From positions 5,272 to 69,271 of the forward strand of contig JARLHZ010000004.1 in assembly GCA_031291995.1 (NCBI GenBank): a DNA stretch of 64,000 bases, given 5' to 3'. Below the pieces are notes generated by a model. The model was not told the DNA's origin. It searched no databases and saw nothing but the letters and a program-made list of their open reading frames with translations. The stretch is from Candidatus Doudnabacteria bacterium. Lineage in GTDB: Bacteria > Patescibacteriota > Doudnabacteria > UBA920. Every line of letters begins with the position of its first letter. The first letter of the stretch is position 1. This document shows, piece after piece, positions 10,201 to 47,285 of the stretch. Position numbers and translations under genes: made by a program.

Positions 10201-10861
10201 TTTTTAGTACCGCTTCATCGCCCGCCGTGATGTTGTTTTTTTTCGCCCACCCGGCATTTACTTCCACCACCCAATTGACCGGCGACGGGGGATAGTAAAC
10301 CGGGAGGCGCGAGTTGCAGCTTTCAACCGATAAGTTACAAATCGCGGGAGCGGGGACATCGGGAGTTACGCCTGTAACTTTTCCGTCCGCAATCCAAATA
10401 AAATCCAAATTAAATTTCATATCCTTCATCCAAAATCCGGTCATTTGCGCCGAGCCAAAATCAAACAGCATGCCCTGGCCTGTGGCCATGGAAATTCTGT
10501 CCGATAAACCTTGTTGCTGCTCCGCCGGCGTGTTCGCAATTTCCACATTCAAATTTTGTGAACCAATTTGCAATCGATGAGAGTAACTATATGGCTGAGC
10601 CGAAACCGGAGCAGAGGATAATATCTGCTGATTGCATCCCGCGGCCAAGACAGCCGTAAAAAAAATTAAAGCCAATAGTTTGAGTAAACGATTATTATTA
10701 AATGTGTCATCCCGACCCGCCGTCGCCAAGGCTTTGGCGGGCAAGCCGACATCATTATGAGCATGGGTCAGGCGAAGCCCTGAGCGGAGCGAAGGGGATC
10801 CCTTATGTGTAGAAATCGCAAATAATTTTATTTTCATCTCTAAATCATACCAAGTCCTCAA
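10196..10861 (-). CDS. DUF192-family lipoprotein. The N-terminal ~55 codons of the ORF probably belong to a repeat element and are not coding
   Basis: Lipobox-like LLALIFFTAVLAAGC and the DUF192 core GMLFDFGSAQMTGFWMKDMKFNLDFIWI. The upstream part of the ORF spans the MITE-like copy at 10694-10815, so the true start is probably near 10700. Confidence 0.55.
   Translation of the reverse strand: MRTWYDLEMKIKLFAISTHKGSPSLRSGLRLTHAHNDVGLPAKALATAGRDDTFNNNRLLKLLALIFFTAVLAAGCNQQILSSAPVSAQPYSYSHRLQIGSQNLNVEIANTPAEQQQGLSDRISMATGQGMLFDFGSAQMTGFWMKDMKFNLDFIWIADGKVTGVTPDVPAPAICNLSVESCNSRLPVYYPPSPVNWVVEVNAGWAKKNNITAGDEAVLKK
10694..10815. mobile_element. MITE-like element copy (TGTCATCCCG family)
   Basis: Starts tgtgtcatcccgaccc and contains gggtcaggcgaagccctgagcggagcgaaggggatccc. 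Related to the copies at 14564, ~15500, 15956 and 47170. Confidence 0.45.
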
Positions 10862-10983
10862 ACCTATTGCAAAATTTATCCGGATGTGCTATAATAAGAA
10901 TGTAAAAGGTAAAAGTTCGCTTAGAAATCAAAACAAAACACAATTTAATAACATCAAATCGGAGGCCAATAATTTAGGCCGAT

Positions 10984-11454
10984 TTGTATTGTGAAACAAA
11001 ATTAAAATCCAATATTATGAGGCATTATCACATGAGCCGAATTCTATATACTTTCATGGTAGCTTTGTTGTTAACTACCGCGGCCGTTTTTGTTTTGTAT
11101 TCGCAGGCGTTACCCGCAAAAGCGCTGCCGGTGTTTGTTCCTTATGGAGGCTTCGTAATTGCCGGCCCCTTGGCTGCCCAGAGTATTATTTGTCCGGAAT
11201 ATTCACTTGTAAATAATGTCGATTTGGAAAACGGTCTCGGGCCGGTTATTGGTATTGCCATCCCTGTCACGCCGCCGGCGCCGACTTATGATTTCAACGA
11301 TATATTTACACCCGGTAATCCTTTAGTGGGTGGCGTTCTGCCGACCCCCTGTGCGGTGGGCCTCGGAGGCGTCCAGGTTTATCCTATATTTTTTGACGCT
11401 CCGGACGGCCCGTTTTATTTGACCGGTACGGGCGGAATTCCGGGAACATATTAA
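10984..11454 (+). CDS. small secreted/membrane hypothetical protein (likely start at 11032, MSRILY...)
   Basis: N-terminal hydrophobic helix LYTFMVALLLTTAAVFVLY followed by a Gly/Pro-rich mature part. No family recognised. Confidence 0.35.
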   Translation: MYCETKLKSNIMRHYHMSRILYTFMVALLLTTAAVFVLYSQALPAKALPVFVPYGGFVIAGPLAAQSIICPEYSLVNNVDLENGLGPVIGIAIPVTPPAPTYDFNDIFTPGNPLVGGVLPTPCAVGLGGVQVYPIFFDAPDGPFYLTGTGGIPGTY

Positions 11455-11464
11455 AAAAACAAAT

Positions 11465-12331
11465 ATGGAAATTTCAAATCAGGAAGCTCAATCTGTTTCT
11501 CCTCAATCAATACAGTGGGGGCATTTTGGCATAATTATGTTTGCCGTAATTTTGCTTTTTGGCGCGGCGTACTTGGAAAAGCCCCAGCTGTTTGATTTTC
11601 ACAAAGCGCAAACCCTTGCCGAGGCCGGCTTGCCGCATTATGTTCCTTATGTTCCCTCGGCGGAAGACTTGCCTCAGCCGGCCGTGCTGGGGGCAAGCAC
11701 CGACCAGGGTCCGCAAATAATAGGGGACGACGGAAAAGTCGCCCCGGTAAACGTTGGACAAGTCTTGGGCGCCAGCACCCAGGGGGTTCAACTTTCTTTA
11801 AGCGATATTAAAGTAAATTCCATTCCCGACTCCGCGGGGTCAGTTAAACAATATTTTATCGATACGCAAGCCATAGAATCAAATGTTATTAGTAATAATG
11901 ATTTTGCAGGAGCTATAAACTCCGGAGACCAAGGGCAAATAAATATTCAGGCGCAAAAAATTTCCGGCTTGTTAGCCGCATTGCAGAAATTACCCGTTCC
12001 CCAGAGCCTTATAAAACTGCAGCAATTAAAAATCGTCCAGTATAATTCCACGATCGCTCTGCTGCAGAATTTTACGAAAGCCGATGAAAACCCCGACCAA
12101 ATTAGTGCCGATCTTCAGCAGTTTTTAAAGAGCCAGCAGGACTTGGATAATGAAAATATCGCGGTGGCGCAAAAATTTCCTCAGGACGACCCACAGTCGG
12201 CGTTGTATCTTAATGCTGACGGCTCCCCGGCTGTTTCGCAATCCACCATTGACAACTTTGGTTCCAGCGCGGTCACGCCAAGCCAAGTTTCCAGCTTAAC
12301 GAATTTAGACAACAGCGATGCGGGCCAATAA
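11465..12331 (+). CDS. hypothetical membrane-anchored protein
   Basis: TM helix HFGIIMFAVILLFGAAYL followed by a Q/S/D-rich hydrophilic domain. No recognisable family. Confidence 0.35.
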   Translation: MEISNQEAQSVSPQSIQWGHFGIIMFAVILLFGAAYLEKPQLFDFHKAQTLAEAGLPHYVPYVPSAEDLPQPAVLGASTDQGPQIIGDDGKVAPVNVGQVLGASTQGVQLSLSDIKVNSIPDSAGSVKQYFIDTQAIESNVISNNDFAGAINSGDQGQINIQAQKISGLLAALQKLPVPQSLIKLQQLKIVQYNSTIALLQNFTKADENPDQISADLQQFLKSQQDLDNENIAVAQKFPQDDPQSALYLNADGSPAVSQSTIDNFGSSAVTPSQVSSLTNLDNSDAGQ

Positions 12332-14276
12332 CGTCAAAAAAATAATTGCAGCGGCTTTAATTTTCAGCCAAATGGTTTTGATGCCGGGCTTGGCTTTTGC
12401 TTTGCCCCTTAGCGGTACCGGTACAGCTGCCGGGGCGGTCAATCCTGTGCCGATTAATGACAGCGGGTCGGTCGTCGGAAATACCGCATTTGATATTGCT
12501 TTAAAAGCAATTTTAACTTTAAATCCCGAATCCCTGGCGGTTTGCGATACTACACTGCAGGGATTCGAAAAAACGGATACTGTAACGCAGGTTGGGTTTT
12601 CTTTTTCTGCGATTATCGGTGGAGGAAATCTTTTGGCCGCGCAGTATGCCAAGGAGATTACCGCATACACCGCATATTTGGCGTGTCTTGAAGGCGATCC
12701 GACCTTGGGTTTTACGCCGGGCGTGCTCCCTGCTTTACAAGCTTTAACATCGCCAAACATTTATACCGCAAGCGTCAAGGAACAATATATTACTAAGGTT
12801 AACGCGAGTATTGAAGCCTATACCGCTAAATTGAACAGCGCCATTGCTAAATACAATGTTGCCAGCCAAAACATCTGGAAAGCCTTTTTAATTACCGTTC
12901 TTCTTCAAACCACGAAAGTCGTGGCTGACCAGTTGGTAAACAAGTTGGTGAATAATTTTAAAATTGCCAATATCAAAGCTTATACCGATTCGGTCGCGAC
13001 TTTAATGTATGACAACCAGTTTATTCGGGACAATTTTCCCGACAACCAGGGCCAGCTTATGGCCAGGGCTATTTTAACTAATCCGGCGTTCCGATTCCAG
13101 GTGCCGCCCGGGATTTACGTTCAAGCGGACACGGCTTTGGGTTATGCGACCTTGAATCCGGACGATCCCTATTTTTACAGCGACCTGGCCAAAGCCGGCT
13201 TTGCGGCTACGAATCCCTATTATTTACATACGACTTACGTAGGCGGTGTTGATCAATCTCATGGTTCGGCGCTGGCTTCGGCCAAGACTTTTATTTCCCA
13301 GGGCACCGGCTATAAAGCGCCGGTTAATTGCGCGGGCAGTCTGGCCCAGCAGCAGCAAATAGACACCGCGACCAAAGCCGCATCAGATCAGTTGGCTAAT
13401 AGAGCGGCATTGCTTCAAAGTTTGCAAAATGCCAGAAGTACCATGACTAATTTTACCACTGCGCAAATTCAGCAGATGGATAGCGACATAGCCAAAGCCC
13501 AGGCCGATTATAATACTGCGCTGGCCGCGTGGAATAATTTGCCATTTACCGTGACTGGTAATAATAGTGTTAGCAATTCAGCCGTGGGCGGCGGTAATAA
13601 CACCGAAGGCACCGCGGCTATTGTTATGTGCGAGGCTATTAATTCCCCGGCCGTGTTAGTCAATCAGGGTATAGATGCCATGTTTAAATCTTTAAACCTT
13701 GGCCAGTATACCCCCAACAACTTGCCCGGTTTCTTAAAGGCAATGGCTGGTATCGCAACACAAATCGGTTCCAGTATGGTTATGGGCGGCATTACCGGTC
13801 ACGCCGTAAATATAAATGAAAATATGGCTGCGGGCGCGGCGGTTTCCGTCACCCAAGCGGCGACCATTCAAACACTAAACAACAACACCGAAAGTAATAT
13901 GGCAAAGGGGATAGATCTTGAAGCTTACCCCAACTCGGGTGTAACCAACGGGTATACTTTAACCTGGACGGTTATGACGACTCAAATCGGGACCGCCAGT
14001 TATGCGGCGATTACCGGGCCGGGGGTAGTGGGTACTACGACAAGGCTGCCGCTCAGCGGGAGCATGCAAGTAGTTTCGCCGACGGGCGGCAATTATACAC
14101 TGACTGTATTTGATTCTTCCGGTAAACCACTGATTACCGCCGTAGCCACTGCCACACCGCAGCAGACCGCGTACAATAATAATGCAAACTCGCCAACCGT
14201 GGCCGGCGCGTTTACCAACCAGCCGGTAATTCTGCCCAGAGGCCTGGTGCCCGTATTTGCTCCGAGAGGGGAATAG
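12318..14276 (+). CDS. large secreted hypothetical protein (signal peptide)
   Basis: Signal peptide IIAAALIFSQMVLMPGLAFALP. 652 aa, A/T/N-rich. No family recognised. Confidence 0.4.
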   Translation: MRANNVKKIIAAALIFSQMVLMPGLAFALPLSGTGTAAGAVNPVPINDSGSVVGNTAFDIALKAILTLNPESLAVCDTTLQGFEKTDTVTQVGFSFSAIIGGGNLLAAQYAKEITAYTAYLACLEGDPTLGFTPGVLPALQALTSPNIYTASVKEQYITKVNASIEAYTAKLNSAIAKYNVASQNIWKAFLITVLLQTTKVVADQLVNKLVNNFKIANIKAYTDSVATLMYDNQFIRDNFPDNQGQLMARAILTNPAFRFQVPPGIYVQADTALGYATLNPDDPYFYSDLAKAGFAATNPYYLHTTYVGGVDQSHGSALASAKTFISQGTGYKAPVNCAGSLAQQQQIDTATKAASDQLANRAALLQSLQNARSTMTNFTTAQIQQMDSDIAKAQADYNTALAAWNNLPFTVTGNNSVSNSAVGGGNNTEGTAAIVMCEAINSPAVLVNQGIDAMFKSLNLGQYTPNNLPGFLKAMAGIATQIGSSMVMGGITGHAVNINENMAAGAAVSVTQAATIQTLNNNTESNMAKGIDLEAYPNSGVTNGYTLTWTVMTTQIGTASYAAITGPGVVGTTTRLPLSGSMQVVSPTGGNYTLTVFDSSGKPLITAVATATPQQTAYNNNANSPTVAGAFTNQPVILPRGLVPVFAPRGE

Positions 14277-14323
14277 TATTCGCTTTTCAATCGACCGTTT
14301 AGAAAAACAAAAATTAGGAGATC

Positions 14324-14352
14324 AAAAAACCATCATCAAAGATGGTTTTTTG
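14324..14352 (+). terminator. rho-independent terminator
   Basis: aaaaaccatc-atcaaa-gatggttttttg is a stem-loop followed by a T-run, downstream of 12318-14276. Confidence 0.6.
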
Positions 14353-14481
14353 ATAGTCACGGGTCTGCCGCCGAATATTTATGCTTAACGCGTTAGGCCT
14401 GACCCGGATAGTTATTTGCACTATAATTTGCATCCATCGGTTGCAAATAATTTCAATAAGCGTAAACTGTAGATAGCCATT

Positions 14482-14519
14482 TGGTAGACAAAACGTGCGG
14501 CCGCACGTTTTGTCTACCA
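14482..14519. repeat. 38-bp perfect palindrome, copy 1
   Basis: tggtagacaaaacgtgcggccgcacgttttgtctacca (centre GCGGCCGC). Confidence 0.9.
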
Positions 14520-14563
14520 ATATCAAATAAAAATTATTACAAGTAGTCTTAAAAATAAAGTTT

Positions 14564-14656
14564 CGTCATCCCCGGCTTGACCGGGGATCCAGAATTGTTC
14601 TTACTTGCTTGACTTGGATTCCTCCGTCCGCCTTAGGCGGGAGGACGGGAATGACG
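14564..14656. mobile_element. MITE-like element copy (TGTCATCCCG family)
   Basis: cgtcatccccggcttgaccggggatcc ... ggcgggaggacgggaatgacg. The termini are inverted (gtcatccccg / cgggaatgac). Confidence 0.45.
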
Positions 14657-14717
14657 TAAAGTGGTCAAAGGTTATTTTTTAAGATAGCTTCTAAGATAAA
14701 AATTAAATTTTACTTTT

Positions 14718-15251
14718 ATGCCGAAAAAAGATTCGACCGCGGTAAATGAAGTTTTATTTTGGCTGTACGAGACGGGGAAGCTTTTGTCCGTAATTTTCGC
14801 GTCCAAGCACGAATGGAAAAGGCGGATGTGGAATCATACCTGGGGGAACTACAACAATTATAAATCCACGGTTTACCATATGCGGGAACAGGGGCTGGTG
14901 GAAATCGTGTCCAAAGATGGCTTAAGGTTTTTAAAACTTACGTCCAAAGGGCAAATGGAAGCATTGCTGGCCAAAGCAAAAGTCGTTAAGCGAGCAGTTT
15001 GGGATAAAAAATGGCGGGTGCTGATTTTTGACATCCCGGAAGACGCCAAATTGCAGAGGAACCAATTCAGGCGTCTGTTAAAAAGAAATGAATTTAAAAA
15101 ATTGCAGGCCAGCGTTTATGTAAACCCCTACCCGTTTAACCGCGAGGCAATTGAATATTTAAAAGAATCAGGTTTAATAAAGTACATTCGGATTTTAAAA
15201 GTTGAAGAAATGGACAGTGATGCCGATTTGCGTAAGATGTTTAATATATAG
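14718..15251 (+). CDS. wHTH + Cas2/VapD-fold (PaaX-like) small protein
   Basis: N-terminal winged-helix-like region (VYHMREQGLVEIVSKDGLRFLKLTSKGQ). The C-terminal region matches the Cas2 beta1-alpha1-beta2 pattern (KKWRVLIFDIPED...QFRRLLKRNEFKKLQASVYVN). No cas1 or array is present. Confidence 0.4.
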   Translation: MPKKDSTAVNEVLFWLYETGKLLSVIFASKHEWKRRMWNHTWGNYNNYKSTVYHMREQGLVEIVSKDGLRFLKLTSKGQMEALLAKAKVVKRAVWDKKWRVLIFDIPEDAKLQRNQFRRLLKRNEFKKLQASVYVNPYPFNREAIEYLKESGLIKYIRILKVEEMDSDADLRKMFNI

Positions 15252-15325
15252 GACTTACTTCTTTCAAAGCGGAACACATTTTTTAATGAGCTTCTGATAC
15301 TAGTCAAATAATCTAAAAATAAAAT

Positions 15326-15363
15326 TGGTAGACAAAACGCGCGGCCGCACGTTTTGTCTACCA
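15326..15363. repeat. 38-bp palindrome, copy 2 (one mismatch)
   Basis: tggtagacaaaacgcgcggccgcacgttttgtctacca. Confidence 0.9.
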
Positions 15364-15732
15364 AAGACAAGAGTTGTATTTTTATATTTATAGGCGATAT
15401 TGGCGAATGGCGCGGGTGGTGTGGCGTGGCAAATCAAATCGGATATTCTGAAGGCAATTTCGGTTTTAATCGACACTATTCCCCGGAGCCCCACTCCAGG
15501 GTTAACAATTATGTCATCCCGGAATTTTTCAGGGCTGTGAAAAATATCCGGGATCCAGTCAGGGCGGCATTCTGGATCCCGGCTCTCTACCTTCGTCAAG
15601 GCTACGGCAGACAAGTCGGATGTATTCGGCCGAGCTGATACACTAGCTATTTGGACTTGTTACCACGCTGCTCTGCCGCGGGGAGGGCTCATTGAAAATC
15701 TGATGCCAATCTTAATAATCTAGAAAGAAAAT

Positions 15733-15770
15733 TGGTAGACAAAACGTGCGGCCGCACGTTTTGTCTACCA
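15733..15770. repeat. 38-bp perfect palindrome, copy 3
   Basis: tggtagacaaaacgtgcggccgcacgttttgtctacca. Confidence 0.9.
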
Positions 15771-15955
15771 AAGACAGGTTTTGTTGAAATTATATTTTAT
15801 AGACGATATCGGTGCGTGGCGCGGGTGGTGCGGGGTGGAAAATCGTCCCGGATATTCTAAAGGTAATGTCGGTTTTATCTAATTTTTACCAATACACAAA
15901 ATTGTTCCGTTTCCCGTAGGTTTGCCGGACTATATTTTGACTTTAATTCACAAGT

Positions 15956-16115
15956 TTGCCGAGGTTACTTCCCACTGGCCCTGTGTCATTGCGAGGAAAC
16001 AAGGGCTTTGACTTATTTCCGAAGCAATCTTAGAGAGACAATAAGATTGCTTCGTCGGCTGCACTCCTCGCAATGACACAACAATTCAATACCCAGTGGG
16101 CAGTAACTTGCCGAG
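15956..16115. mobile_element. MITE-like element with ~45-bp imperfect terminal inverted repeats
   Basis: Left arm ttgccgaggttacttcccactggccctgtgtcattgcgagga. Right arm tcctcgcaatgacacaacaattcaatacccagtgggcagtaacttgccgag. Internal palindrome gaagcaatcttagagagacaataagattgcttc. Confidence 0.55.
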
Positions 16116-16119
16116 TATT

Positions 16120-16147
16120 TTGTGATTTTTGGGGAATGTGGTATAAT
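16120..16147 (+). promoter_or_regulatory. sigma70-like promoter candidate for the VirB6-like gene
   Basis: -35 ttgtga at 16120-16125, a 16-nt spacer, and an extended -10 tgg-tataat at 16139-16147. It sits 24 bp upstream of the ATG at 16171. Confidence 0.4.
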
Positions 16148-16170
16148 TTTAGTGAAAGTCTTATCCACAA

Positions 16171-24782: not shown

Positions 24783-25181
24783 ATGGCAGATCAAAACAAA
24801 ATAATCCATAAGGATCTCAGTTATAAAATTGTCGGTGTTGCTTTTAGATCTTTTAAGGCAACAGGATATGGAATGCCTGAAAAGTACTGTCAAGGTGTGT
24901 TCGCTGCCGAACTTGAGAAAGCTGGGTTGCACTTTAATCGGGAAGTTTATGTTACTTTAAATTATGAAGGTAAAGTTATCACAAAGTATTTTTTAGATTT
25001 TATTGTTGAAGATTCGGTGGTTGTGGAATTAAAAGTTCGGCCAAAAATCGGATATGCCCATATTGAACAAGTAATGGCATACCTTAAAGCAACGAATAAG
25101 AAATTAGCGATTTTAATCTATTTTACCCAAGAAGGTGTGAAATATCGGAGAATCGTTAATTCTTACAACAAACTACAATGA
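24783..25181 (+). CDS. GxxExxY-family protein (PD-(D/E)XK-like)
   Basis: DLSYKIVGVAFRSFKATGYGMPEKYCQGVFAAELEKAGL...FLDFIVEDSVVVELKV...IEQVMAYLKATNKKLAILIYF. Confidence 0.7.
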   Translation: MADQNKIIHKDLSYKIVGVAFRSFKATGYGMPEKYCQGVFAAELEKAGLHFNREVYVTLNYEGKVITKYFLDFIVEDSVVVELKVRPKIGYAHIEQVMAYLKATNKKLAILIYFTQEGVKYRRIVNSYNKLQ

Positions 25182-25186
25182 GCAGG

Positions 25187-25222
25187 TTCGTATATTAATT
25201 TTAAATTTGTATATTCGCGATT
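25187..25222. repeat. right arm of the inverted repeat bracketing the GxxExxY gene
   Basis: ttcgtatattaattttaaatttgtatattcgcgatt. Confidence 0.7.
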
Positions 25223-25225
25223 ACT

Positions 25226-25909
25226 ATGAAGCTTGAAATGCAAAACAAAAAAAAGCCTATTGGGAAGCCGACGCAGAATTTTTTGCGTATTTCGGAAATA
25301 AAAAACGACACCGTGGTTATGGACGACGGAACTTTGCGGGTCATAATTATGGTGTCCAGCACCAATTTTGACTTAAAGAGCCAGGACGAACAGAATTCCA
25401 TTATTTTCGGTTTCCAGCGGTTTTTAAACAGCCTGGAATTTCCCGTCCAGATTCTCATGCAAAGCCGAAAAATGGAGATTGGCGGCTATTTGGAAAAATT
25501 AAAGAAATTGGCGGACAAGCAGACCAACGAGCTCCTCCGCGTCCAGACCAACGAATACGTGGAGTTTATTTCCCGGCTCATTGAGAACGCCAGCATTATG
25601 AATAAGAATTTTTATATTGTCGTCCCTCTGGGGGAAAGCATTTTTCCGGCCGCCGCGGGGTTCTTTAGCCGCGTATTCGGCAGGGGGCGGGAACGGGAAG
25701 TTACCGAGCGGATAGAAAATTTTGAAAAGGCCAAAGAAAAATTGGACAACCGCGCCACCTCGCTGGCCTCCAACCTTTCGGGTATTGGCATTCGGGCAGA
25801 ACGAATGAAGACGGAAGAAATTATCCAGCTGTATTATAATTCCTATAATTTTGAATCGGGCCCGCTGATAAACCCGGGAGAGCTTAAAGAAATCAAACTA
25901 TCACAATAA
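25226..25909 (+). CDS. protein resembling a VirB4/TrbE N-terminal domain (no ATPase motifs)
   Basis: FLRISEIKNDTVVMDDGTLRVIIMVSSTNFDLKSQDEQNSIIFGFQRFLNSLEFPVQILMQSR resembles the CagE/TrbE/VirB4 N-region. Confidence 0.3.
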   Translation: MKLEMQNKKKPIGKPTQNFLRISEIKNDTVVMDDGTLRVIIMVSSTNFDLKSQDEQNSIIFGFQRFLNSLEFPVQILMQSRKMEIGGYLEKLKKLADKQTNELLRVQTNEYVEFISRLIENASIMNKNFYIVVPLGESIFPAAAGFFSRVFGRGREREVTERIENFEKAKEKLDNRATSLASNLSGIGIRAERMKTEEIIQLYYNSYNFESGPLINPGELKEIKLSQ

Positions 25910-25923
25910 ATCAATTGATTAAT

Positions 25924-26030
25924 GTCAAATTATAAATATCAAATTTCAAATCAATGTCAAAGTTTGAAATTTAAAAAATTTGTAATTAGGTTTTGATTTG
26001 AAATTTGTAATTTGATATTTGAAATTTAAC
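25924..26030. repeat. word-built hairpin, caaatttcaaat family
   Basis: tgtcaaattataaatatcaaatttcaaatcaatgtcaaag ... ttttgatttgaaatttgtaatttgatatttgaaattt. Confidence 0.6.
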
Positions 26031-26032
26031 CT

Positions 26033-27880
26033 ATGTCTATTTTTAGCAAACTCACCGAACAGGATTTAGAACAAAAAAAGGCTCAGCTCAAGGAAAAGGA
26101 GAAGGAACATTCCCTGAGTTCGTCATTGGGCGATTTGGAAAAAACCTATAAGGAAGGCTTGACGACGTTAAAGGATATTATCGCGCCGTCGGCTTTAAAA
26201 TTTGAAGGGTCGCATTTTGAATTAAACGGCAAATACGGCCGCAGTTTTTTCGTGCTGGCCTATCCGCGCTTTTTGTCCAGCAACTGGCTGTCGTTTATAA
26301 TCCAGGCGGACGGAGCCCTGGATTTGTCGATGTTTATTTATCCCATAGACTCGGCGGACATTCTAAAAAAATTAAAGAGCAAGGTCGGGGAACTTGGTTC
26401 GCAAATGTCCATTAACCAGGAAAAGGGCATGGTCCGCGACCCGATGCTGGAGACGGCTTACAAAGACGTGGAAGGCCTGCGCGACAACTTAATGCAGGGT
26501 ACGGAAAAGTATTTTCGGTTCGCCCTGTACTTTACAATATACGCCAACGATTTAAAGGAACTGGACAAATCATCCTCGACCCTGGAAAGCAGCCTGGGGG
26601 CCAAGCTGATTGTTACCAAACGGGCGCTGCTTCAGACGCAGAACGGACTGAATTCCACGCTTCCCATGGGTTTGGACGAACTGGACGTGGCCAATAACAT
26701 GAATACCAGCCCGCTGTCCTCGTGTTTTCCTTTTGTGTCATCGGATTTGACTTCCAACGACGGGATTTTATACGGCATTAACCGACACAATAACAGTTTG
26801 ATATTATTTGACCGTTTTGCCATGGAAAATGCCAACTCCGTTGTGTTTGCCAAGTCCGGCGCGGGGAAGTCTTACGCGGTCAAATTGGAAGTTTTACGAA
26901 GTCTCATGGTTGGCACAGACGTTATTATCGTGGATCCGGAAAATGAGTACCAGCATTTGGCCGCGGCTGTTGGCGGAACTTATTTGAGCGTCAGTTTAAA
27001 TTCCCCGTCCCGCATTAACCCGTTTGATTTGCCGGTTGCCGTGGAAGGTGAAAGCAACGCGGACGTCCTGCGCAGTTCGGTTATTAACTTGCTGGGTTTG
27101 TTCAGTTTGATGCTGGGCAAGCTAAATCCCACCGAAGAAGCCATTATGGACAAGGCCATTTGGCAAACTTACGCCAAAAAAGATATTACATCCGAATTGG
27201 AAGATTTTAAAAACATTGAGTGCCCGACCATGAACGATTTGATGGAAATTTTAAACAGCATGGTCGGAGCCGAGAGCCTGGCTCAGCGGCTGACCAAATT
27301 TACCGAAGGCACTTTTGGCGGATTGCTAAACCAGGCGACCAACGTGGTGCTTAACAACCAGCTGGTGGTATTTTCCATCCGCGATTTGGAAGAGGAACTG
27401 AGGCCAATAGCCATGTATATTATTTTAAATTACATTTGGAATGTCGTCCGCAGCGAATTAAAGCGCCGCATTCTGGCCGTGGACGAAGCCTGGATACTCA
27501 TGCAGCATGAAGACAGCGCCAGGTTCCTGTTCGGTATTGCCAAACGCGCCCGTAAATATTACCTTGGCCTGACCACCATTACCCAGGACGTGGCCGACTT
27601 TTTGGCCAGCCCCTACGGCAAACCGATTGTGACCAACTCGTCCATCCAAATGTTGTTAAAACAATCCCCGGCGGCTATTAATGTAATCGCTGAAACATTC
27701 TTTTTGACCGAGGGAGAAAAATATTTATTGCTGGAAAGCGAAGTCGGCGAAGGGATATTTTTTGCCGGGCTGAAGCACGCGGCCATCAAAATTTACGCGT
27801 CCTACGTGGAAGACCAAATAATTACCACCGACCCCAAACAGCTTTTGGAAATTCAGGACAGCCAGGAAAAGTTGAACTAA
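26033..27880 (+). CDS. VirB4/TrbE-family type IV secretion ATPase
   Basis: Walker A FAKSGAGKSYAV, Walker B ILAVDEAWILM, and a VirB4-like N-region (GKYGRSFFVLAYPRFLSSNWLSFII...DLSMFIYPID). Confidence 0.65.
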   Translation: MSIFSKLTEQDLEQKKAQLKEKEKEHSLSSSLGDLEKTYKEGLTTLKDIIAPSALKFEGSHFELNGKYGRSFFVLAYPRFLSSNWLSFIIQADGALDLSMFIYPIDSADILKKLKSKVGELGSQMSINQEKGMVRDPMLETAYKDVEGLRDNLMQGTEKYFRFALYFTIYANDLKELDKSSSTLESSLGAKLIVTKRALLQTQNGLNSTLPMGLDELDVANNMNTSPLSSCFPFVSSDLTSNDGILYGINRHNNSLILFDRFAMENANSVVFAKSGAGKSYAVKLEVLRSLMVGTDVIIVDPENEYQHLAAAVGGTYLSVSLNSPSRINPFDLPVAVEGESNADVLRSSVINLLGLFSLMLGKLNPTEEAIMDKAIWQTYAKKDITSELEDFKNIECPTMNDLMEILNSMVGAESLAQRLTKFTEGTFGGLLNQATNVVLNNQLVVFSIRDLEEELRPIAMYIILNYIWNVVRSELKRRILAVDEAWILMQHEDSARFLFGIAKRARKYYLGLTTITQDVADFLASPYGKPIVTNSSIQMLLKQSPAAINVIAETFFLTEGEKYLLLESEVGEGIFFAGLKHAAIKIYASYVEDQIITTDPKQLLEIQDSQEKLN

Positions 27881-28040
27881 TTTCAAATTACAAATAACAA
27901 ATTTCAAATAAATTCCTAATTTTAAGCGCCAAATAATATCCAAAAGGCCGCGTGTTAAATTTCAAAAGTCCGGGTTTGGCCTTTGAAATTTGGATTTTGG
28001 CGTTGGTTTGATATTTGGAATTTGTAATTTGGAATTTTTT
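27881..28040. repeat. word-built hairpin(s), caaatttcaaat family
   Basis: tttcaaattacaaataacaaatttcaaat ... atttgaaatttggattttggcgttggtttgatatttggaatttgtaatttggaat. Confidence 0.6.
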
Positions 28041-28045
28041 ATTTT

Positions 28046-31326: not shown

Positions 31327-31453
31327 TAAGGCCAGGGCGGCCGGACAAAATTTGTTTTGCCTCTACGCCTTGCCAACGAACGGTGTTGGTAGTAGCAAAG
31401 CTTGGGCGGGCAAGGCGCGGGGCAAAATAATTTTTCCGGCCGCGCCGGCCCAT
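31327..31453. repeat. ~130-bp repeat element, copy 2
   Basis: taaggccagggcggccggacaaaatttgttttgcctctacgccttgccaa...ttggtagtagcaaagcttgggcgggcaaggcgcggggcaaaa matches 4847-4983. Confidence 0.6.
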
Positions 31454-31484
31454 ACTTAAGCGCACAAAACTTAATTCGTCGGGT

Positions 31485-33454: not shown

Positions 33455-33640
33455 GACAAGATTGACATAATTGAACAAAATTGACAAGATTATCATAGTA
33501 TAACCTTGTCAATTTTTTTTGGCTCGGCATTCTTTACACCAGGAACTACTTAGCAAAAATCGTTTATGATATTCCTGTCAATCCTGTCAATCCTGTCAAT
33601 CTTGTCAATCTTGTCAATCATTTTACTCTTGTCAATCATC
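33455..33640. repeat. word-built inverted arrays (ttgacaag x3 upstream, cctgtcaat/cttgtcaat x6 downstream) around a terminator hairpin
   Basis: ctgacaagattgacataattgaacaaaattgacaagatt ... hairpin ttgacaagattatcatagtataaccttgtcaa followed by an 8-T run ... cctgtcaatcctgtcaatcctgtcaatcttgtcaatcttgtcaatc. Confidence 0.6.
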
Positions 33641-33642
33641 CC

Positions 33643-41097: not shown

Positions 41098-41112
41098 TAT
41101 AAAAGCCGAAAA

Positions 41113-42177: not shown

Positions 42178-42181
42178 AGTA

Positions 42182-42933: not shown

Positions 42934-42963
42934 CTGGTAATCTTAAATTTATAAGGAGAAACT

Positions 42964-43116
42964 ATGCTGTTATTTATTGCGATTATATTATTGGTTCTAT
43001 GGGGTTTGGGTCTGGCACTGCATGTTCTGGGCGGATTTATTTACATGTTTTTGGTGGCCGCTTTATTGGTTGGGTTGGCGCATTTTGTCAAAGGGAATAA
43101 GACGTCTAACTTATAA
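42964..43116 (+). CDS. lmo0937/DUF5670-family small membrane protein (not in supplied ORF track)
   Basis: ATG at 42964 to TAA at 43116. MLLFIAIILLVLWGLGLALHVLGGFIYMFLVAALLVGLAHFVKGNKTSNL. RBS-like aaggagaa at 42953. Confidence 0.5.
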   Translation: MLLFIAIILLVLWGLGLALHVLGGFIYMFLVAALLVGLAHFVKGNKTSNL

Positions 43117-43129
43117 TTAACTGACATTT

Positions 43130-43378
43130 ATGGGAATTATATTATGGATAATTTTTGGCGCGCTGGTCGGCTGGATTGCCTCGGCTATTATGGGCAGGAA
43201 TGAGGGGGTAGTTATGAATATTGTAATCGGTATCGTTGGGGCAATAATCGGCGGTTGGATTATGAGCGCCATTGGCTCAACCGGGGTAACCGGGTTTAAC
43301 CTATACAGCTTTCTGGTCGCCTTGCTCGGCGCGGTAGTACTTATCTTTATAGTCAGAGCGATTCGTGGAATGGCCTAA
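43130..43378 (+). CDS. GlsB/YeaQ/YmgE-family stress-response membrane protein
   Basis: MGIILWIIFGALVGWIASAIMG...VIGIVGAIIGGWIMSAIG...GFNLYSFLVALLGAVVLIFIVRAIRG. Confidence 0.8.
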   Translation: MGIILWIIFGALVGWIASAIMGRNEGVVMNIVIGIVGAIIGGWIMSAIGSTGVTGFNLYSFLVALLGAVVLIFIVRAIRGMA

Positions 43379-44122
43379 AAAAAGGGGTCAGGAGCCATTT
43401 ACTAGAAGATAGTTTTGTGGTATCTTTAAAATATGCCCAGATCCCAAAGAGCCGACATAGCCAATATTATTTACCATGTCATCAACCGGTCCAATGCCAG
43501 AATGGCCATTTTTGAAAAAGCCCAGGATTTTCTGGCCTTTTTGGAAGTTTTAAGTGAAGCCAGGGAGAAGTTTCTTGTGGAAGTTCTGGCTTTTTGCATA
43601 ATGCCCAACCATTGGCATTTAATTTTAAAACCTTTAAAATACGGGGAACTGTCCAAGTTTATGGCCTGGCTGACAATGACCCATACCCAGCGCTGGCATG
43701 CCTTTCACCACACCGTCGGCAGCGGCCATTTGTATCAGGGCAGGTACAAGTCTTTTCCGGTTCAAACCGATGAGTATTTTATTCAACTAGTCCGGTATGT
43801 GGAAAGAAACCCATTAAGAGCAAAGTTAGTCAAAAGTGCCGAAGACTGGAAGTGGGGCAGTTTATGGTTAAGGCAGCAGGGGACTTTACAACAAAAGCAA
43901 TTACTCGGTTCCTGGCCCATACCGCCGAGTAAAAATTACCTGAAGTTGGTTAATACTGTTCAACCTATAGCCGAAGTCGACTCTATTAGAACCGCCATTG
44001 CAAAAAACCGACCCTTAGGAGACGACCGCTGGGTACAACGCACGGCTAAGACATTGGGTTTAACATCCTCATTAAGAAACCCGGGTAGGCCAAGAAAAAA
44101 CGGCTCCTGACCCCTTTTTGTT
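43379..44122. mobile_element. IS200/RAYT-like unit: tyrosine (HUH) transposase gene bracketed by 18-bp perfect inverted repeats
   Basis: aaaaaggggtcaggagcc at 43379-43396, and ggctcctgacccctttttg at 44104-44122 overlapping the stop codon. Confidence 0.6.
43433..44110 (+). CDS. REP-associated tyrosine transposase (RAYT) / IS200-like HUH transposase
   Basis: HUH motif MPNHWHLIL, a conserved Y in RYVERNP, and the typical N-terminus YHVINRSNARMAIF. Confidence 0.75.
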   Translation: MPRSQRADIANIIYHVINRSNARMAIFEKAQDFLAFLEVLSEAREKFLVEVLAFCIMPNHWHLILKPLKYGELSKFMAWLTMTHTQRWHAFHHTVGSGHLYQGRYKSFPVQTDEYFIQLVRYVERNPLRAKLVKSAEDWKWGSLWLRQQGTLQQKQLLGSWPIPPSKNYLKLVNTVQPIAEVDSIRTAIAKNRPLGDDRWVQRTAKTLGLTSSLRNPGRPRKNGS

Positions 44123-44316
44123 CCTCAACCTCCTGCCGATATGAACGATAAAGTTTCCCGGACTTTCAACCCCAAATCACATAGTGTGCGAGTACTCGGA
44201 GATTAAAAGTTATGAAATTCGCAAATTGTCAGGAAACACTAAACTGGCTAAAAAACTGCGGAGAAAAAATACGACAGCTTGAACATAACCGTTATTTTTT
44301 CGCAAAAGAAAAACCC

Positions 44317-44574
44317 TCAAAGGGGTTTGGTTAAGCTGTCAGTTAACATAGTTTTTATCGTTGTTCTGCCTTTGGCGGTTTTTAAGTACATCTCCCGTCT
44401 TTTTGCGTCTTTGGTTGAGATATAAGCTTCATAAAACAGCAACTTCCATGGCCTGTAGGGTTTTGTTGCTATGGATAAGCCATCGTTGTGTTGCCTGAAC
44501 CTTTGCCGTAGGTCAGTCGTATATCCGATGTATAACCTACCTTTGAGGTTGCGTAAGATATAAACGTAAAACAT
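44317..44574 (-). CDS. GIY-YIG domain protein (small, UPF0213-like)
   Basis: MFYVYILRNLKGRLYIGYTTDLRQRFRQHN...Y is the GIY-YIG signature. Confidence 0.75.
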   Translation of the reverse strand: MFYVYILRNLKGRLYIGYTTDLRQRFRQHNDGLSIATKPYRPWKLLFYEAYISTKDAKRREMYLKTAKGRTTIKTMLTDSLTKPL

Positions 44575-44613
44575 ATTTGTTTTTTATGCCCCCCAACAGT
44601 TTAGTGTTGGGTT

Positions 44614-44730
44614 TGGTATCCCAGCACCATTCGGTGCGGGATTACCACGGCACCAGCCCGTGGCTAATTTACACTGGTTTAAAGGATTGGTCGCAAGCGG
44701 TTGGCTACGGCCACGCACCGAATGGTGCCG
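44614..44730 (-). other. structured element: a 15-bp perfect stem enclosing ~80 nt with internal hairpins, between tRNA-Glu and the GIY-YIG gene
   Basis: gcaccattcggtgcg ... cgcaccgaatggtgc. Internal hairpins tggc-cgta-gcca and ccacgg-gctggtg-ccgtgg. Confidence 0.4.
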
Positions 44731-44805
44731 TGGTAGCGCTACCGGGAATCGAACCCGGATTTAGTGGATGAGAACCACTTATCCTAACCATTAGATGATA
44801 GCGCC
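44731..44805 (-). tRNA. tRNA-Glu (anticodon CTC)
   Basis: The reverse complement reads GGCGCTATCATCTAATGGTTAGGATAAGTGGTTCTCATCCACTAAATCCGGGTTCGATTCCCGGTAGCGCTACCA. All four arms pair. Anticodon loop UUCUCAU. Confidence 0.8.
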
Positions 44806-45029
44806 ATATAAGGATTTGTCGGAGCTTTGGTTGATTTACTTGATAATCTCATCAATTTTACCAAATTTTGCGAAAAGCCTCAAGGTATGGCATACTAATA
44901 AAAAGCTTATGCTACTAAAATAACGCTGATAGGCACGCTGATTATGCCGCTGAAACTTCAGGTCGCTTTGATCCTGGCAGTAAGAATCAGTAGTCATTCA
45001 GCGGAAAAAGTACTTATTCGAAACAAAAC

Positions 45030-46271
45030 ATGCCGAAACAAAAGCTGTTTTTTCCCAAGGATTTTTTGTGGGGTGCTTCCACTTCGGGGCATCAGACAGA
45101 AGGCAACAACACCAACAGTGATTGGTGGGCTTTTGAACATAGCCAGCGCCGGGAGGCAGTGCTTAAGGCAGCGGGGAAAAATATTCCTGACTATCAAAGC
45201 GGTATTGCCTGTGACAGCTACAATAGGTATGACGAAGATTTCGCTTTAGCCCAGCATCTTAACCATAACGCCACGCGTATTGGCATTGAATGGGCGAGAA
45301 TTGAACCGGAAGAAGGAAAATTTTCCGAAAAAGAACTGGCTCATTACGAAAAAGTTTTGCAATCGGCCAAATTCCACGGTCTGCAGACTTTTGTCACGTT
45401 GCACCACTATACATTGCCCAAGTGGCTGGCCGATAAGGGCGGATTTTTAAACCCGGCCTCCGTAGGATTGTTCGCCCGCTACGTGTCCGCGGTCTCGCGG
45501 CGGCTTAACCAGTATACCGATTTTTGGTTGACAATAAACGAGCCGGAAGTTTACGCCACACACTCTTATTTATTGGGCCGATATCCGCCCAAGAAAAAAA
45601 GCCTGTTTAAAACATTGAAGGTGGTAAATAATTTGGTTGATGCCCATAACCAGGCCGCGAAAATTTTAAAATTTGAAACCGGCAAACCGGTGAGTATGGC
45701 CTATCAGCTGTCCGATTTGGAACCTTCCGGATTTTTCAGCCATTTTACCCATTTTTTGGCGGAATATTTGGCTAATGAATATATTATAAACCGGACCATC
45801 GGCACCTGCGATTTTATTGGGGTAAACTATTACATCCACCATCACATTGGTTTTTGGGGTATCAGGAAACACAGCCATAGTAAGCATGAACAAAACGATT
45901 TAGGATGGGGGATACATCCCGACGGTTTGGAACGCCTGCTGGTCAATTTGAAAAAACACAATAAGCCAATTTACATTACCGAGAACGGGATTGCCGACTC
46001 AAAGGACATTAAAAGGGAAAAATTCATTAAAGACCATTTATACCATGTGCACTGCGCCATACAAAAAGGCGTGGACGTGCGCGGTTATTTATACTGGTCG
46101 TTAATCGACAACTTCGAGTGGTTACACGGTTTTTGGCCGCGGTTTGGGCTGGTTGAAATCGACCGGGAAGACTTGCTTCGCCGGAAGGTCCGTTACAGCG
46201 CTTTAAAGTACGCGGAAATTTGCCGGACCAATTGTTTGGAAGTGGATGCGTCCCAAGTGCATAACATATAA
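45030..46271 (+). CDS. glycoside hydrolase family 1 beta-glucosidase
   Basis: FLWGASTSGHQTEGNN, TINEPEVY (acid/base), YITENGIAD (nucleophile). Confidence 0.8.
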   Translation: MPKQKLFFPKDFLWGASTSGHQTEGNNTNSDWWAFEHSQRREAVLKAAGKNIPDYQSGIACDSYNRYDEDFALAQHLNHNATRIGIEWARIEPEEGKFSEKELAHYEKVLQSAKFHGLQTFVTLHHYTLPKWLADKGGFLNPASVGLFARYVSAVSRRLNQYTDFWLTINEPEVYATHSYLLGRYPPKKKSLFKTLKVVNNLVDAHNQAAKILKFETGKPVSMAYQLSDLEPSGFFSHFTHFLAEYLANEYIINRTIGTCDFIGVNYYIHHHIGFWGIRKHSHSKHEQNDLGWGIHPDGLERLLVNLKKHNKPIYITENGIADSKDIKREKFIKDHLYHVHCAIQKGVDVRGYLYWSLIDNFEWLHGFWPRFGLVEIDREDLLRRKVRYSALKYAEICRTNCLEVDASQVHNI

Positions 46272-46273
46272 TA

Positions 46274-47161
46274 ATGATTACGCTGCTTACAATCTTCCAA
46301 TATCTTATCCAGGCCGTGGTGGACTTAATGGATAAGTTTTTAATTACGGCGCGCAAACTGGAGCCGGTGAAGTATACCTTTTATACGGTTGCGACGGGCG
46401 CCTTGCTGGCCGTATTGTGGCCCTGGAATTTTGCCGTTATCCCGTTGAAGTTTATAGTTTTGGATTTATTTTCCGGCGCTTTTTTTAGCCTGGCAATGTA
46501 TGTATTTTTTGTGGCCTTGTCTCAGGGCGAAGTTTCCCGCGTGGTGCCGTTTGTGTTTGGCCTGGTTCCGGTATTTGACGTGGTTATTTCCCTAATTACC
46601 GGCCACAATAGTTTGCGGATCAATGAGCTTGCCGCGGTATGCCTGCTTATTCCCGGAGCGCTGCTGATTTCCCATCAAAAACACGCCGGTTGGATAAAGC
46701 ATGCCGGCCTTAAAGTTTTAAGCGCGCTGCTGTTCAGTGTTTATTACGCATTGTGGCAATTCGGGGCGCAAAGCGGCCCCGTGCTGAACAATTTGATTTG
46801 GAACAGGCTGGGCGCCGCCGCGATTTTAGTTTTGCTGCTGTTGGTTCCGGTTTTTAGGAAAAAAGTTTTTTCGATAGATGAAGTAAAAAATCGCGCCAAC
46901 ACCTCGTTTTTATTTTTATTTAAACAGGTTTTGGGAGGTGCGAATTTTATATTTTTGAGCTTTCTATTTGTGGTCGGGAAAATTTCGATAATTAACGCCC
47001 TGCAAGGCTTTCGTTACGCGTTTTTGCTGTTATTGAGTTTTCTGCTGGCCCGCCACCATATGCATTTAATGGATGAAAAAACCGACCGAAAGGTGGTAAT
47101 TCAAAAAACCGCGGGAATAATTTTAATATTTATCGGCACGGTCTTATTGTTTGTGACGTAG
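46274..47161 (+). CDS. polytopic membrane protein (DMT/EamA-like?)
   Basis: About 9-10 predicted TM helices. No specific motifs recognised. Confidence 0.3.
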   Translation: MITLLTIFQYLIQAVVDLMDKFLITARKLEPVKYTFYTVATGALLAVLWPWNFAVIPLKFIVLDLFSGAFFSLAMYVFFVALSQGEVSRVVPFVFGLVPVFDVVISLITGHNSLRINELAAVCLLIPGALLISHQKHAGWIKHAGLKVLSALLFSVYYALWQFGAQSGPVLNNLIWNRLGAAAILVLLLLVPVFRKKVFSIDEVKNRANTSFLFLFKQVLGGANFIFLSFLFVVGKISIINALQGFRYAFLLLLSFLLARHHMHLMDEKTDRKVVIQKTAGIILIFIGTVLLFVT

Positions 47162-47169
47162 TTTATAGT

Positions 47170-47285
47170 TGTGTCATCCCGAGCCGGAACATTACAGGGA
47201 TCAAAGGCGAGGGATCCCTTAACGCGAGATAATCGATTAATTTTAGGGATTCCTCAGTCGGCCGCACTCCTTCGGAATGACACAG
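47170..47285. mobile_element. MITE-like element copy (TGTCATCCCG family) with inverted termini
   Basis: tgtgtcatcccgagccgg ... ccttcggaatgacacag. Internal gggatcaaaggcgagggatccc. Confidence 0.55.

Follow-up and report, generated by a model that had tools for sequence, protein, structure and literature searches.

The DNA analysed here, referred to as the window, is a 64-kb stretch of a Candidatus Doudnabacteria MAG. It carries five intergenic elements (E1–E5) that together contain eight hairpin units, as well as a RAYT-like transposase gene and a gene for a small GIY-YIG protein (Table 1). A sequence-only reading had described a MITE-like family of about five copies here. Five loci are indeed present near the positions that it gave, 'about 5 copies' being right as a count of loci, and all five elements lie between ORFs, as it had noted. 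E3, placed by that reading at ∼15500–15600, ends ∼40 nt farther on (15513–15641 in full); its left unit is intact and its right end has decayed to cTGATAC. The span proposed for E4 (15956–16115) marks the correct locus but is wide enough to include an outer inverted repeat, and no second or unfilled copy of this outer hairpin was detected elsewhere in the window. The repeats are clustered at 14.3–16.2 kb.

Table 1. Positions of the repeat elements and of the candidate partner genes in the window
Feature	Position	Strand	Remarks
E1 solo hairpin unit, GTCATCCCGA...GGGGATCC	10706–10801	+	∼75-nt interior with a second CPR repeat module, AAGGCTTTGGCGGGCAAGCCG
E2 left unit, cGTCATCCCCGGCTTGACCGGGGATCCAG	14565–14590	+	Fits published SRM pattern; NTS-like flanks
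E2 right unit, GTCATTCCCGTCCTCCCGCCTAAGGCGGACGGAGGAATCC	14616–14655	−	Inverted relative to left unit
E2 whole doublet	14565–14655 (91 bp)		DNA fold z = −3.5
E3 left unit, GTCATCCCGGAATTTTTCA...TGAAAAATATCCGGGATCCAG	15513–15556	+	Hairpin present in centroid DNA fold
E3 right arm, decayed, GGATCCCGGCTC...GAGCTGATAC	15574–15641	−	Nested module AAGGCTACGGCAGACAAGTCG
E4 doublet	15985–16077 (93 bp)		Left unit 15985–16029 (+), right unit 16045–16077 (−)
Outer inverted repeat around E4, GTTACTTCCCACTGG / CCAGTGGGCAGTAAC	15964–15978 and 16093–16107		
RAYT-like Y1 (HUH) transposase gene	43433–44110	+	Private 22-nt inverted repeat, 43379–43400 / 44098–44119
Single-domain GIY-YIG gene (85 aa)	44317–44574	−	PF01541 present
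SRM-like hairpins upstream of the GIY-YIG gene	44615–44646 (GTAATCCCGCACCGAATGGTGCTGGGATACC) and 44711–44733		Next to tRNA-Glu
E5 doublet	47173–47281 (109 bp)		Left unit 47173–47217 (+), right unit 47247–47281 (−)

The units have the form (Y)GTC-AT[T/C][G/C]C…variable…G[C/G][G/A]AT-C(C). The 'termini' and the 'internal GGGATCC' reported earlier are thus real motifs, but they are the 5′ and 3′ halves of one hairpin rather than separate features. When GTCAT[TC][CG]C was searched for together with a complementary G[CG][AG]ATC within the next 90 nt, eight such structured units were found in the window, compared with 0.14 ± 0.40 (largest value 2) across 300 dinucleotide shuffles; by itself, the 9-mer GTCATCCCG was not clearly enriched when a single mismatch was allowed (16 matches versus 9.7 ± 2.7 in shuffles). 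All eight units have GTC, a 5-bp closing stem with complementary sides and a C at the 3′ end; in every one the stem starts with AT (W-Y), the C directly follows the palindrome and position −1 is a pyrimidine (T or C). In 95% of 183 doublets from other contigs, this position likewise holds C or T. The stem also covaries: in 19 long arms picked on their 5′ part and loop only, a left G is matched by a right C in 13 and a left C by a right G in the remaining six, with no exceptions. In total, seven stem variants with complementary sides were recorded; the window itself has three stem variants.

Contrary to the earlier description, the elements are not copies of one sequence. In an alignment they average 40% column identity, and nothing beyond the ∼12-nt ends and the closing motif can be aligned, which is the outcome that the sequence-only reading had named as refuting its proposal. 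Unit interiors are unrelated to one another and may hold nested palindromic modules. E2, E4 and E5 are complete inverted doublets of 91–109 bp, E3 is a decayed one and E1 is a solo unit, a form that is common. In a doublet, each strand has at its 5′ end one unit in the correct orientation. The five loci do constitute a dispersed non-coding repeat family with inverted termini, as had been proposed.

E1 and the left unit of E5 agree at 15 of their 16 5′ nucleotides and at all 11 positions of the 3′ sequence GGGATCCCTTA. The right unit of E4 is a CPR 'long arm', GTCATTGCGAGGAGTGCAGCCGACGAAGCAATC, and identical arms occur in Doudnabacteria MAGs; the right unit of E5 is a variant of this arm, GTCATTCCGAAGGAGTGCGGCCGACTGAGGAATCC, and its left unit has two alternative GGGATC closings. 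Hairpin folding of E2–E5 as DNA gave z values from −2.4 to −8.2, the latter for E4, which with its TGT/ACA extension forms 16 terminal base pairs (−29.5 kcal/mol).

Likeness of the units to NTS/SRM repeats

NTS/SRM repeats are hairpins that are bound and nicked, as ssDNA only, by small single-domain GIY-YIG nucleases named Ssn (Chenal et al., Nat Commun 2025, PMC11893778). The restriction to ssDNA, for binding as well as cleavage, was established for the Neisseria and Wolbachia enzymes, and nicking occurs upstream, within a few nucleotides of the hairpin (PMC11893778). Cleavage requires GTC and binding requires the C after the palindrome, whereas the loop is dispensable and can be replaced (PMC11893778). 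The hypervariable interiors of the window units fit this tolerance of loop replacement, and the pyrimidine at position −1 agrees with the published flanks, 'CGTCAT' for NTS and 'HGTC' for SRM (PMC11893778). In addition, the NTS 3′ flank ATCYRG is present in the left units of E2 and E3.

Among the observations that count against an Ssn relationship, two concern the units themselves. First, the published degenerate SRM pattern, HGTCWYN(0-2)YYVSBRHN(0-5)WNVSBRGN(0-2)RNCYNB, has a single match in the window (0.09 expected in shuffles), namely the left unit of E2; the remaining seven preserve the frame, with stems, loops or inserts too long for the pattern. Second, the window mixes three stem variants, whereas sequence inside the palindrome matters to the Neisseria enzyme (PMC11893778). 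Neither Patescibacteria nor candidate phyla are mentioned in the main text of that study, and a full-text literature search for GTCATTGCGAG returned unrelated primers as its sole matches.

Units in related genomes

An HMM search found no canonical ssn gene in the 64-kb window. In two sister Doudnabacteria genomes (L209 and L210), however, a canonical ssn gene has units on both sides (SRM-ssn-SRM), and the same arrangement was found in another member of the Patescibacteria (L192) and in an IMG/VR contig (L154). Among the first 66 IMG/VR loci, a regular-expression search had detected no ORF for a small GIY-YIG protein; the bracketed genes of L154 and L192 were recovered by a profile HMM search and those of L209 and L210 by later look-ups. 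The CPR Ssn protein of L192 and the gonococcal SsnA homologue share 41% identity over 85 aa (E 2e-25), the homology extending over the full length; the reference used is the chromosomal homologue, whose database record is wrongly labelled a plasmid. In Neisseria gonorrhoeae itself (L207), ssn is bracketed by NTS, copies of which also make inverted doublets of ∼107 bp.

The units turn over between related genomes. The spacer between the EamA and GH5 genes, which holds E5 in the window, is empty in three orthologous loci (L199, L201 and L205) and occupied by other elements in three more (L200, L202 and L203). A syntenic Doudnabacteria contig lacks E2–E4 and has units in other spacers. Turnover was seen inside a conserved type-IV-secretion-like cluster. 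The repeats have sharp boundaries that lack TSDs. Doublets made of a long and a short arm also occur as 117 distinct elements on IMG/VR contigs of 36–72% GC. The CPR long-arm pattern was found at 17 Patescibacteria loci among genome contigs and had no match in viral contigs.

Nuclease and transposase candidates in the window

The window contains one single-domain GIY-YIG gene. Alignment of its product with the gonococcal SsnA homologue covers a 64-aa core only (pairwise E 1e-8); the C-terminal KKWxR...NPxWxDL segment is missing, and the homology does not span the whole length (∼90 aa) of a cd10448-type Ssn. GTCAT units do not flank the gene, nor do any lie within 10 kb of its homologues at five related loci; the homologues in L175–L181 have none beside them. 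Because the gene and its homologues lack adjoining units, we regard it as no more than a possible partner nuclease; it is a divergent relative of Ssn.

The RAYT-like gene raises the question of whether the hairpins are REP sequences and the doublets REPINs, mobilised by this Y1 tyrosine transposase. Its product matches model NF047646 over positions 2–145 of 146 (E 3.5e-19), carries an HUH motif (HWH) and a Tyr motif (RYVERNP), and is encoded ∼3 kb from E5; nevertheless, the score of 69 bits falls below the family cut-off of 80. Unit and doublet anatomy of the kind described above, together with the absence of TSDs, is reportedly also a trait of REP/REPIN systems (Nunvar 2010; Bertels & Rainey 2011; Ton-Hoang 2012) and would suit such a transposase. 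A true RAYT gene has on its flanks the REPs that are also scattered over its genome. The 22-nt repeat flanking the window gene, AAAAAGGGGTCAGGAGCC, is unrelated to the GTCAT units and has no other copy in the window. Moreover, phmmer detected no homologue of the RAYT-like protein in ∼200 unit-carrying loci, four of which have ssn directly bracketed by units. We consider mobilisation by the RAYT-like protein quite unlikely.

Alternative origins of the hairpins

Host structural or regulatory hairpins that lack a dedicated nuclease, such as terminators, mRNA stabilisers or protein-binding sites, would also be intergenic and could fold as strongly as E2–E5 do. Yet an intrinsic-terminator scan of positions 14200–16300 scored only unrelated 40-nt palindromes and none of the E2–E4 units, and no T-run follows E5. 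At the gathering threshold Rfam reported nothing but three tRNAs, and an E-value scan of 14.2–16.2 kb gave sub-threshold noise. A specific protein partner is instead indicated by the GTC...C frame, since it recurs from Neisseria to CPR bacteria around ssn genes; a purely structural or regulatory role is accordingly very unlikely.

A classical MITE origin, in which deletion derivatives of an IS are moved by a DDE transposase acting on TGTGTCAT... terminal inverted repeats, is largely refuted and appears extremely improbable: against inverted termini of up to TGTGTCATTGCGAGG (E4) that start TG...CA, a length of 91–109 bp, intergenic placement and presence/absence differences among relatives stand the unrelated bodies, the frequent solo units, the lack of TSDs, the lack of a DDE transposase among the scanned window ORFs, and the fact that each 'TIR' is half of a hairpin whose covarying partner lies inside the element, a partner that a transposase binding site does not need. 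TSDs of 2–9 bp occurred at or below chance at the 183 doublets from other contigs, with the exception of one 5-bp match (0.18 expected), and none were found by eye at E2, E4 or E5. The sequence-only reading had suggested looking elsewhere for a cognate transposase; Pfam scans of ∼47 window ORFs revealed no DDE transposase. What stands of the MITE-like reading is a dispersed intergenic repeat family with inverted termini, and this family also turns over between relatives. The label is only loosely right, and a REP/REPIN-like SRM family is the better description because what is conserved coincides exactly with the defining traits of NTS/SRM hairpins.

Discussion

We conclude that the elements are probably Ssn-related-motif (SRM or NTS-like) hairpin repeats of the REP-like class. 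They do not represent a new transposon, since hairpin repeats of this kind were described in 2025 as Ssn cutting sites. In the Doudnabacteria genome, the units would serve an Ssn-type nuclease as substrates; its gene would lie outside the window, or it may be the divergent GIY-YIG gene within it. Such a nuclease could act whenever the DNA becomes single-stranded, as in replication, DNA uptake or conjugative transfer, and, as in Neisseria, its activity may both spread the repeats and trim incoming or recombining ssDNA.

With the NTS/SRM-Ssn system (PMC11893778) the window elements have in common the frame of (Y)GTC, AT-led palindrome and C, the variable loop and the intergenic enrichment; the likeness extends to sister Doudnabacteria, in which units bracket ssn genes, and to the ∼107-bp inverted doublets around the gonococcal ssnA homologue. 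They differ in their host, a Patescibacteria (CPR) MAG, in the length of most units, which exceeds what the published pattern permits, in the unequal long and short arms of the doublets, in a CPR-specific loop, GGAGTGCRGCCGAC, present in Patescibacteria MAGs only, and in having no canonical ssn gene within 64 kb.

Other repeat families share some of these traits. In REP/BIME/REPIN-RAYT systems, too, a short conserved 5′ motif precedes a variable palindrome, units pair into inverted doublets of ∼100 bp, TSDs are absent and a nuclease gene present as a single copy has units on both sides; in the relatives studied here, however, the bracketed gene encodes a GIY-YIG nuclease and not a Y1 HUH transposase, and the RAYT-like gene of the window has flanking repeats other than GTCAT units. 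Classical bacterial MITEs such as Correia elements resemble the window elements in size, terminal inverted repeats and intergenic location, but the window elements lack TSDs, a common body and a parent IS. The dRS3 and Neisseria intergenic mosaic elements have an ATTCCC-N8-GGGAAT core, the hairpin type of the ATTCC/GGAAT variant in the window, and are similarly clustered, whereas the window has three stem variants, much longer interiors and no apparent link to filamentous-phage integration.

The inverted doublet might itself be a REPIN-like mobile unit whose excision and re-insertion rely on nicking by a GIY-YIG ssDNA nuclease; in this Doudnabacteria genome it would perhaps be served by the tRNA-Glu-linked divergent GIY-YIG gene, or act with the neighbouring RAYT-like gene. 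We regard this as rather unlikely; if true, it would be a transposition chemistry for which no precedent has been described and which operates in bacteria ranging from Proteobacteria to CPR.

Patescibacteria are ultra-small, episymbiotic and heavily dependent on imported DNA and nucleotides. Since they rely on imported DNA, trimming of ssDNA at genomic hairpins could shape uptake and recombination in these cells. An SRM assignment of the window units would place the recently described Ssn/SRM system in Patescibacteria and would explain a very frequent cause of both spurious small ORFs and 'MITE' calls in MAGs, those of CPR bacteria included. The unequal-armed doublets, the nested modules, the sharp TSD-free boundaries and the turnover within the type-IV-secretion-like cluster add comparative detail on how such repeats spread.

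Anatomy and relatedness of the five elements

The loci at which the sequence-only reading had placed a MITE-like family were read directly and both strands were scanned for GTCAT[TC][CG][CG], which confirmed the repeats at all five places: eight genuine units, each a single hairpin with a 5' GTC and a 3' C, make up five elements (E1–E5), all of which lie between ORFs. All units have the frame (Y)GTC-AT[T/C][G/C]C...interior...G[C/G][G/A]AT-C(C). Closing stems occur in three variants, complementary in all cases (ATTGC/GCAAT, ATTCC/GGAAT and ATCCC/GGGAT). The "terminus" and "internal GGGATCC" of the sequence-only reading both exist, but they are not separate features; since every unit has the same closing frame, they make up a single hairpin, the former as its 5' half and the latter as its 3' half. 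Structured units number eight against 0.14 ± 0.40 expected from 300 dinucleotide shuffles; enrichment of the bare 9-mer terminus, with one mismatch allowed, is unconvincing (16 in the window versus 9.7 in shuffles). Folded as single-stranded DNA, E4 reaches -29.5 kcal/mol (z = -8.2), and z is -3.5 for E2, -3.2 for E3 and -2.4 for E5; the whole-element fold of E1 is unexceptional (z = -0.5).

Features of the window discussed in the text
Feature	Position	Strand	Remarks
E1	10706-10801		Solo unit
E2	14565-14655		Pair of inverted units, 91 bp
E3	15513-15641		Intact left unit; right end decayed to cTGATAC
E4	15985-16077		93 bp; 16 terminal base pairs including TGT/ACA extension
E5	47173-47281		109 bp
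Type-IV-secretion-like cluster	12318-34977		PrgI-like 24201-24653; TraC-like 25226-25909; VirB4-like 26033-27880
PDDEXK_3 gene	24783-25181		Region with flanking repeat, 24650-25227
RAYT-like Y1 (HUH) transposase gene	43433-44110		NF047646 at 69 bits, short of the cut-off (80); HWH and RYVERNP motifs
Inverted repeat around RAYT-like gene	43379-44119		22 nt, 95% complementary (AAAAAGGGGTCAGGAGCC...)
GIY-YIG gene	44317-44574	-	85 aa; PF01541; region with tRNA-Glu and hairpins, 44317-44805
Hairpins of GIY-YIG region	44615-44646; 44711-44733		Conserved
Palindrome TTGGTAGACAAAACGTGCGGCCGCACGTTTTGTCTACCAA	14480-14520; 15325-15364; 15732-15771		40 nt, near-perfect
PaaX_M/Cas2-like ORF	14718-15251
Tandem duplication	15307-16120		~408 bp; palindrome plus 82-nt repeat (15387-15468; 15796-15877)
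AT-rich/simple repeats	582-628; 2074-2159; 9076-10202; 21019-28045; 33564-33635; 59037-61733		7-nt period; 9-nt at 33564-33635
ACAGCRG run	22323-22991		Within ORF 22173-23696
G+C-rich repeat	4847-4983; 31327-31462		~137 nt

In a MAFFT alignment covering both orientations, mean column identity among E1–E5 is 40%, and only the initial ~12 nt and the closing motif can be aligned. A single MITE consensus, for which the sequence-only reading itself asked for alignment beyond the terminal motif, is therefore given up. Some partial relationships exist: E1 agrees with the left unit of E5 at 15/16 nt of the 5' end and 11/11 nt of the 3' end, with unrelated interiors. E4 and E5 have the loop GGAGTGCRGCCGAC in common in their right arms, and a nested module, AAGGCTWYGGCRGRCAAGYCG, is present in both E1 and E3 as well as in other Patescibacteria loci, sometimes within unit arms (comparison loci L189 and L196). 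We conclude that E1–E5 are not copies of one element; what they have in common is architecture.

A wider family with sharp ends

The consensus GTCATTSCGARGAGYGNRGCGACGARGSAATC matches 66 IMG/VR stretches, and a pattern for the doublet (two inverted units), GTCATTGCGAG-N58-88-CTCGCAATGAC, matches at least 120. The doublet-pattern matches listed, together with comparison loci already collected, comprise 117 distinct elements of 80–110 bp on contigs of 36–72% GC, in most of which a long arm (...GAG-GAGCGNAGCGAC-GAAGCAATC) stands opposite a shorter one (...GAG-CGAAGC-GAAGCAATC). In the species-representative genome collection, the long-arm variant GTCATTSCGA(N)GGAGTGCRGCCGAC, usually partnered by the short arm GTCATTGCGAGTGCATCCGAAGCAATC, was found in 17 stretches, every one of which belongs to a Patescibacteria MAG (Doudnabacteria, Kuenenbacteria or a bin labelled Saccharibacteria). 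When long arms from that collection and the window's two were chosen on their 5' part and loop only, the stem base covaried: G pairs with C in 13/13 and C with G in 6/6.

Of 183 distinct doublets from other contigs, 95% have C or T at position -1, and flank-to-flank complementarity falls to chance level at position 2 and beyond. Direct repeats of 2–9 bp do not exceed chance, except for one 5-bp match (0.18 expected). The elements are thus sharply bounded and lack the target-site duplications looked for under the MITE reading.

Correspondence to the hairpin repeats of the Ssn system

Ssn proteins are small GIY-YIG nucleases acting on single-stranded DNA. The Neisseria SsnA, a single-domain protein of 94 aa, recognises the hairpin repeat NTS (CGTCATTCCCGCGMAVGCGGGAATCYRG), whose sequence includes the classical dRS3 repeat; it binds the hairpin as single-stranded DNA only, and its cut falls a few nucleotides upstream (Chenal et al. 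2025, Nat Commun 16:2388, PMC11893778). Cleavage depends most on the trinucleotide 5' of the palindrome and binding on the C directly after it, while removal or extension of the loop is tolerated; in Neisseria, Ssn affects transformation (PMC11893778). A second, degenerate repeat, the "Ssn-related motif" (SRM), occurs at least once in 71% of regions around ssnA homologues and on both sides of 42% of homologues (PMC11893778). The window units have exactly the features described for NTS/SRM. The left unit of E2 (cGTCATCCCCGGCTTGACCGGGGATCCAG) fits the published SRM pattern outright (1 match versus 0.09 in shuffles), whereas the remaining seven, though they retain the frame, are longer than the pattern allows. 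The best fit for the window elements is thus the SRM/NTS type of hairpin repeat that belongs to the Ssn system. The window comes from a Candidatus Doudnabacteria MAG, and these repeats are here extended to a CPR lineage with arm variants of its own.

An HMM search over all comparison loci, followed by two look-ups, identified four loci in which units directly flank a canonical Ssn-type gene on both sides: two from Doudnabacteria (L210 and L209), one from Patescibacteria (L192) and one from IMG/VR (L154). The L210 arrangement runs ggcGTCATTCTGAAGGCCTTTAGGCCTGAAGAATC, a 12 nt gap, ssn from ATG to stop and, immediately, gatccttcccctcgtctgactcggggtcaggatgacgcc; the 949-kb contig of L209 also contains two long-arm doublets (L182, L194). 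Over 85 aa, the L192 protein shows 41% identity (E 2e-25) with a gonococcal SsnA homologue, whose gene is itself surrounded by NTS copies, as ~107-bp inverted doublets. Unlike stems flank the single ssn in L209 and L210, ATGCT or ATTCT on one side and ATCCT on the other, so that differences in the stem seem to be tolerated where pairing is preserved.

Turnover between relatives

The spacer holding E5, between EamA and GH5 genes, was compared in relatives whose EamA is 68–74% identical to the window's. It is empty in L199 and L201 (10–20 bp), AT-rich and without a unit in L205, occupied by other palindromes in L200 and L202, and in L203 filled by a different doublet with stems ATCCT/AGGAT and ATTCT/AGAAT. 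The window from 12.3 to 35 kb is syntenic with L209 (proteins 23–92% identical), which has no units at the positions of E2–E4 but carries them in other spacers of the same type-IV-secretion-like cluster. The slot of the window's PDDEXK_3 nuclease gene is the exact position of ssn in L209. The PDDEXK_3 gene lies between the PrgI-like and TraC-like genes and is flanked by a 30-nt inverted repeat (93% complementary); in L209 (9865-10301) the slot holds ssn bracketed by SRM units, indicating that different small nuclease genes use the same spacer.

Nuclease and transposase genes of the window

An HMM search found no canonical ssn within the 64-kb window. The protein of its GIY-YIG gene aligns with SsnA over a 64-aa catalytic core only and lacks the C-terminal segment, and in five related loci no GTCAT units lie within 10 kb of its homologues. 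These homologues share upstream hairpins, CCACGGCACCATTCGGTGCGTGG and GTAATCCCGYACCGWATGGTRCTGGGATACC, adjoining a tRNA-Glu gene; the latter resembles an SRM, but with GTA in place of GTC. In the window, too, the gene adjoins tRNA-Glu behind two such hairpins, and the cassette recurs in related CPR genomes (L175–L181 and L204) with covarying stems and different upstream genes. L179 has the hairpin pair in 4–5 tandem copies, and in L204 two GIY-YIG genes stand in tandem, each accompanied by a partial duplicate of tRNA-Glu. The cassette looks like a tRNA-targeted selfish gene. In Doudnabacteria nzgw383 (L197, 1226-2113), a GIY-YIG domain lies in frame within a ~295-aa ORF, ~280 bp from an SRM doublet; the remainder of this ORF is presumably RibD_C/dihydrofolate-reductase-like.

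About 200 bp from the GIY-YIG gene, on the opposite strand, is the RAYT-like gene. Its flanking inverted repeat has no other copy in the window, and no homologue of its protein was found in ~200 unit-carrying loci. Pfam scans of ~47 window ORFs revealed no DDE transposase that could be cognate to a MITE. With unalignable bodies, no target-site duplications at the 183 doublets and no DDE transposase among the ORFs scanned, DDE/TSD-type MITEs are rejected; what stands of that reading is a mobile-looking intergenic repeat family.

Possible mechanism

Ssn nicks such hairpins on single-stranded DNA only, in dependence on GTC and the 3' C (PMC11893778). The window's units may be Ssn substrates in vivo, with the nuclease encoded elsewhere in the genome or its role perhaps filled by the window's divergent GIY-YIG protein. 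Nicking of transiently single-stranded DNA could account both for how the repeats spread and for how they affect recombination. Because a doublet has one unit at the 5' end of each strand, nicks would fall just outside both ends, a placement compatible with the hypothesis that the doublet is a REPIN-like mobile unit.

Other repeats in the window

The three copies of palindrome TTGGTAGACAAAACGTGCGGCCGCACGTTTTGTCTACCAA lie around the PaaX_M/Cas2-like ORF, whose L209 orthologue is flanked by palindromes with the same GCGGCCGC core. E3 ends one copy of the tandem duplication and E4 the other. AT-rich/simple repeats belong to several families (CAAATTA/CAAATTT, TCCTAAT, TACGAAG, ACAGCRG) and often form gene-flanking inverted pairs, such as 23700-23757 with 25978-26035. 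The two copies of the G+C-rich repeat are 77–79% identical and contain internal palindromic segments.
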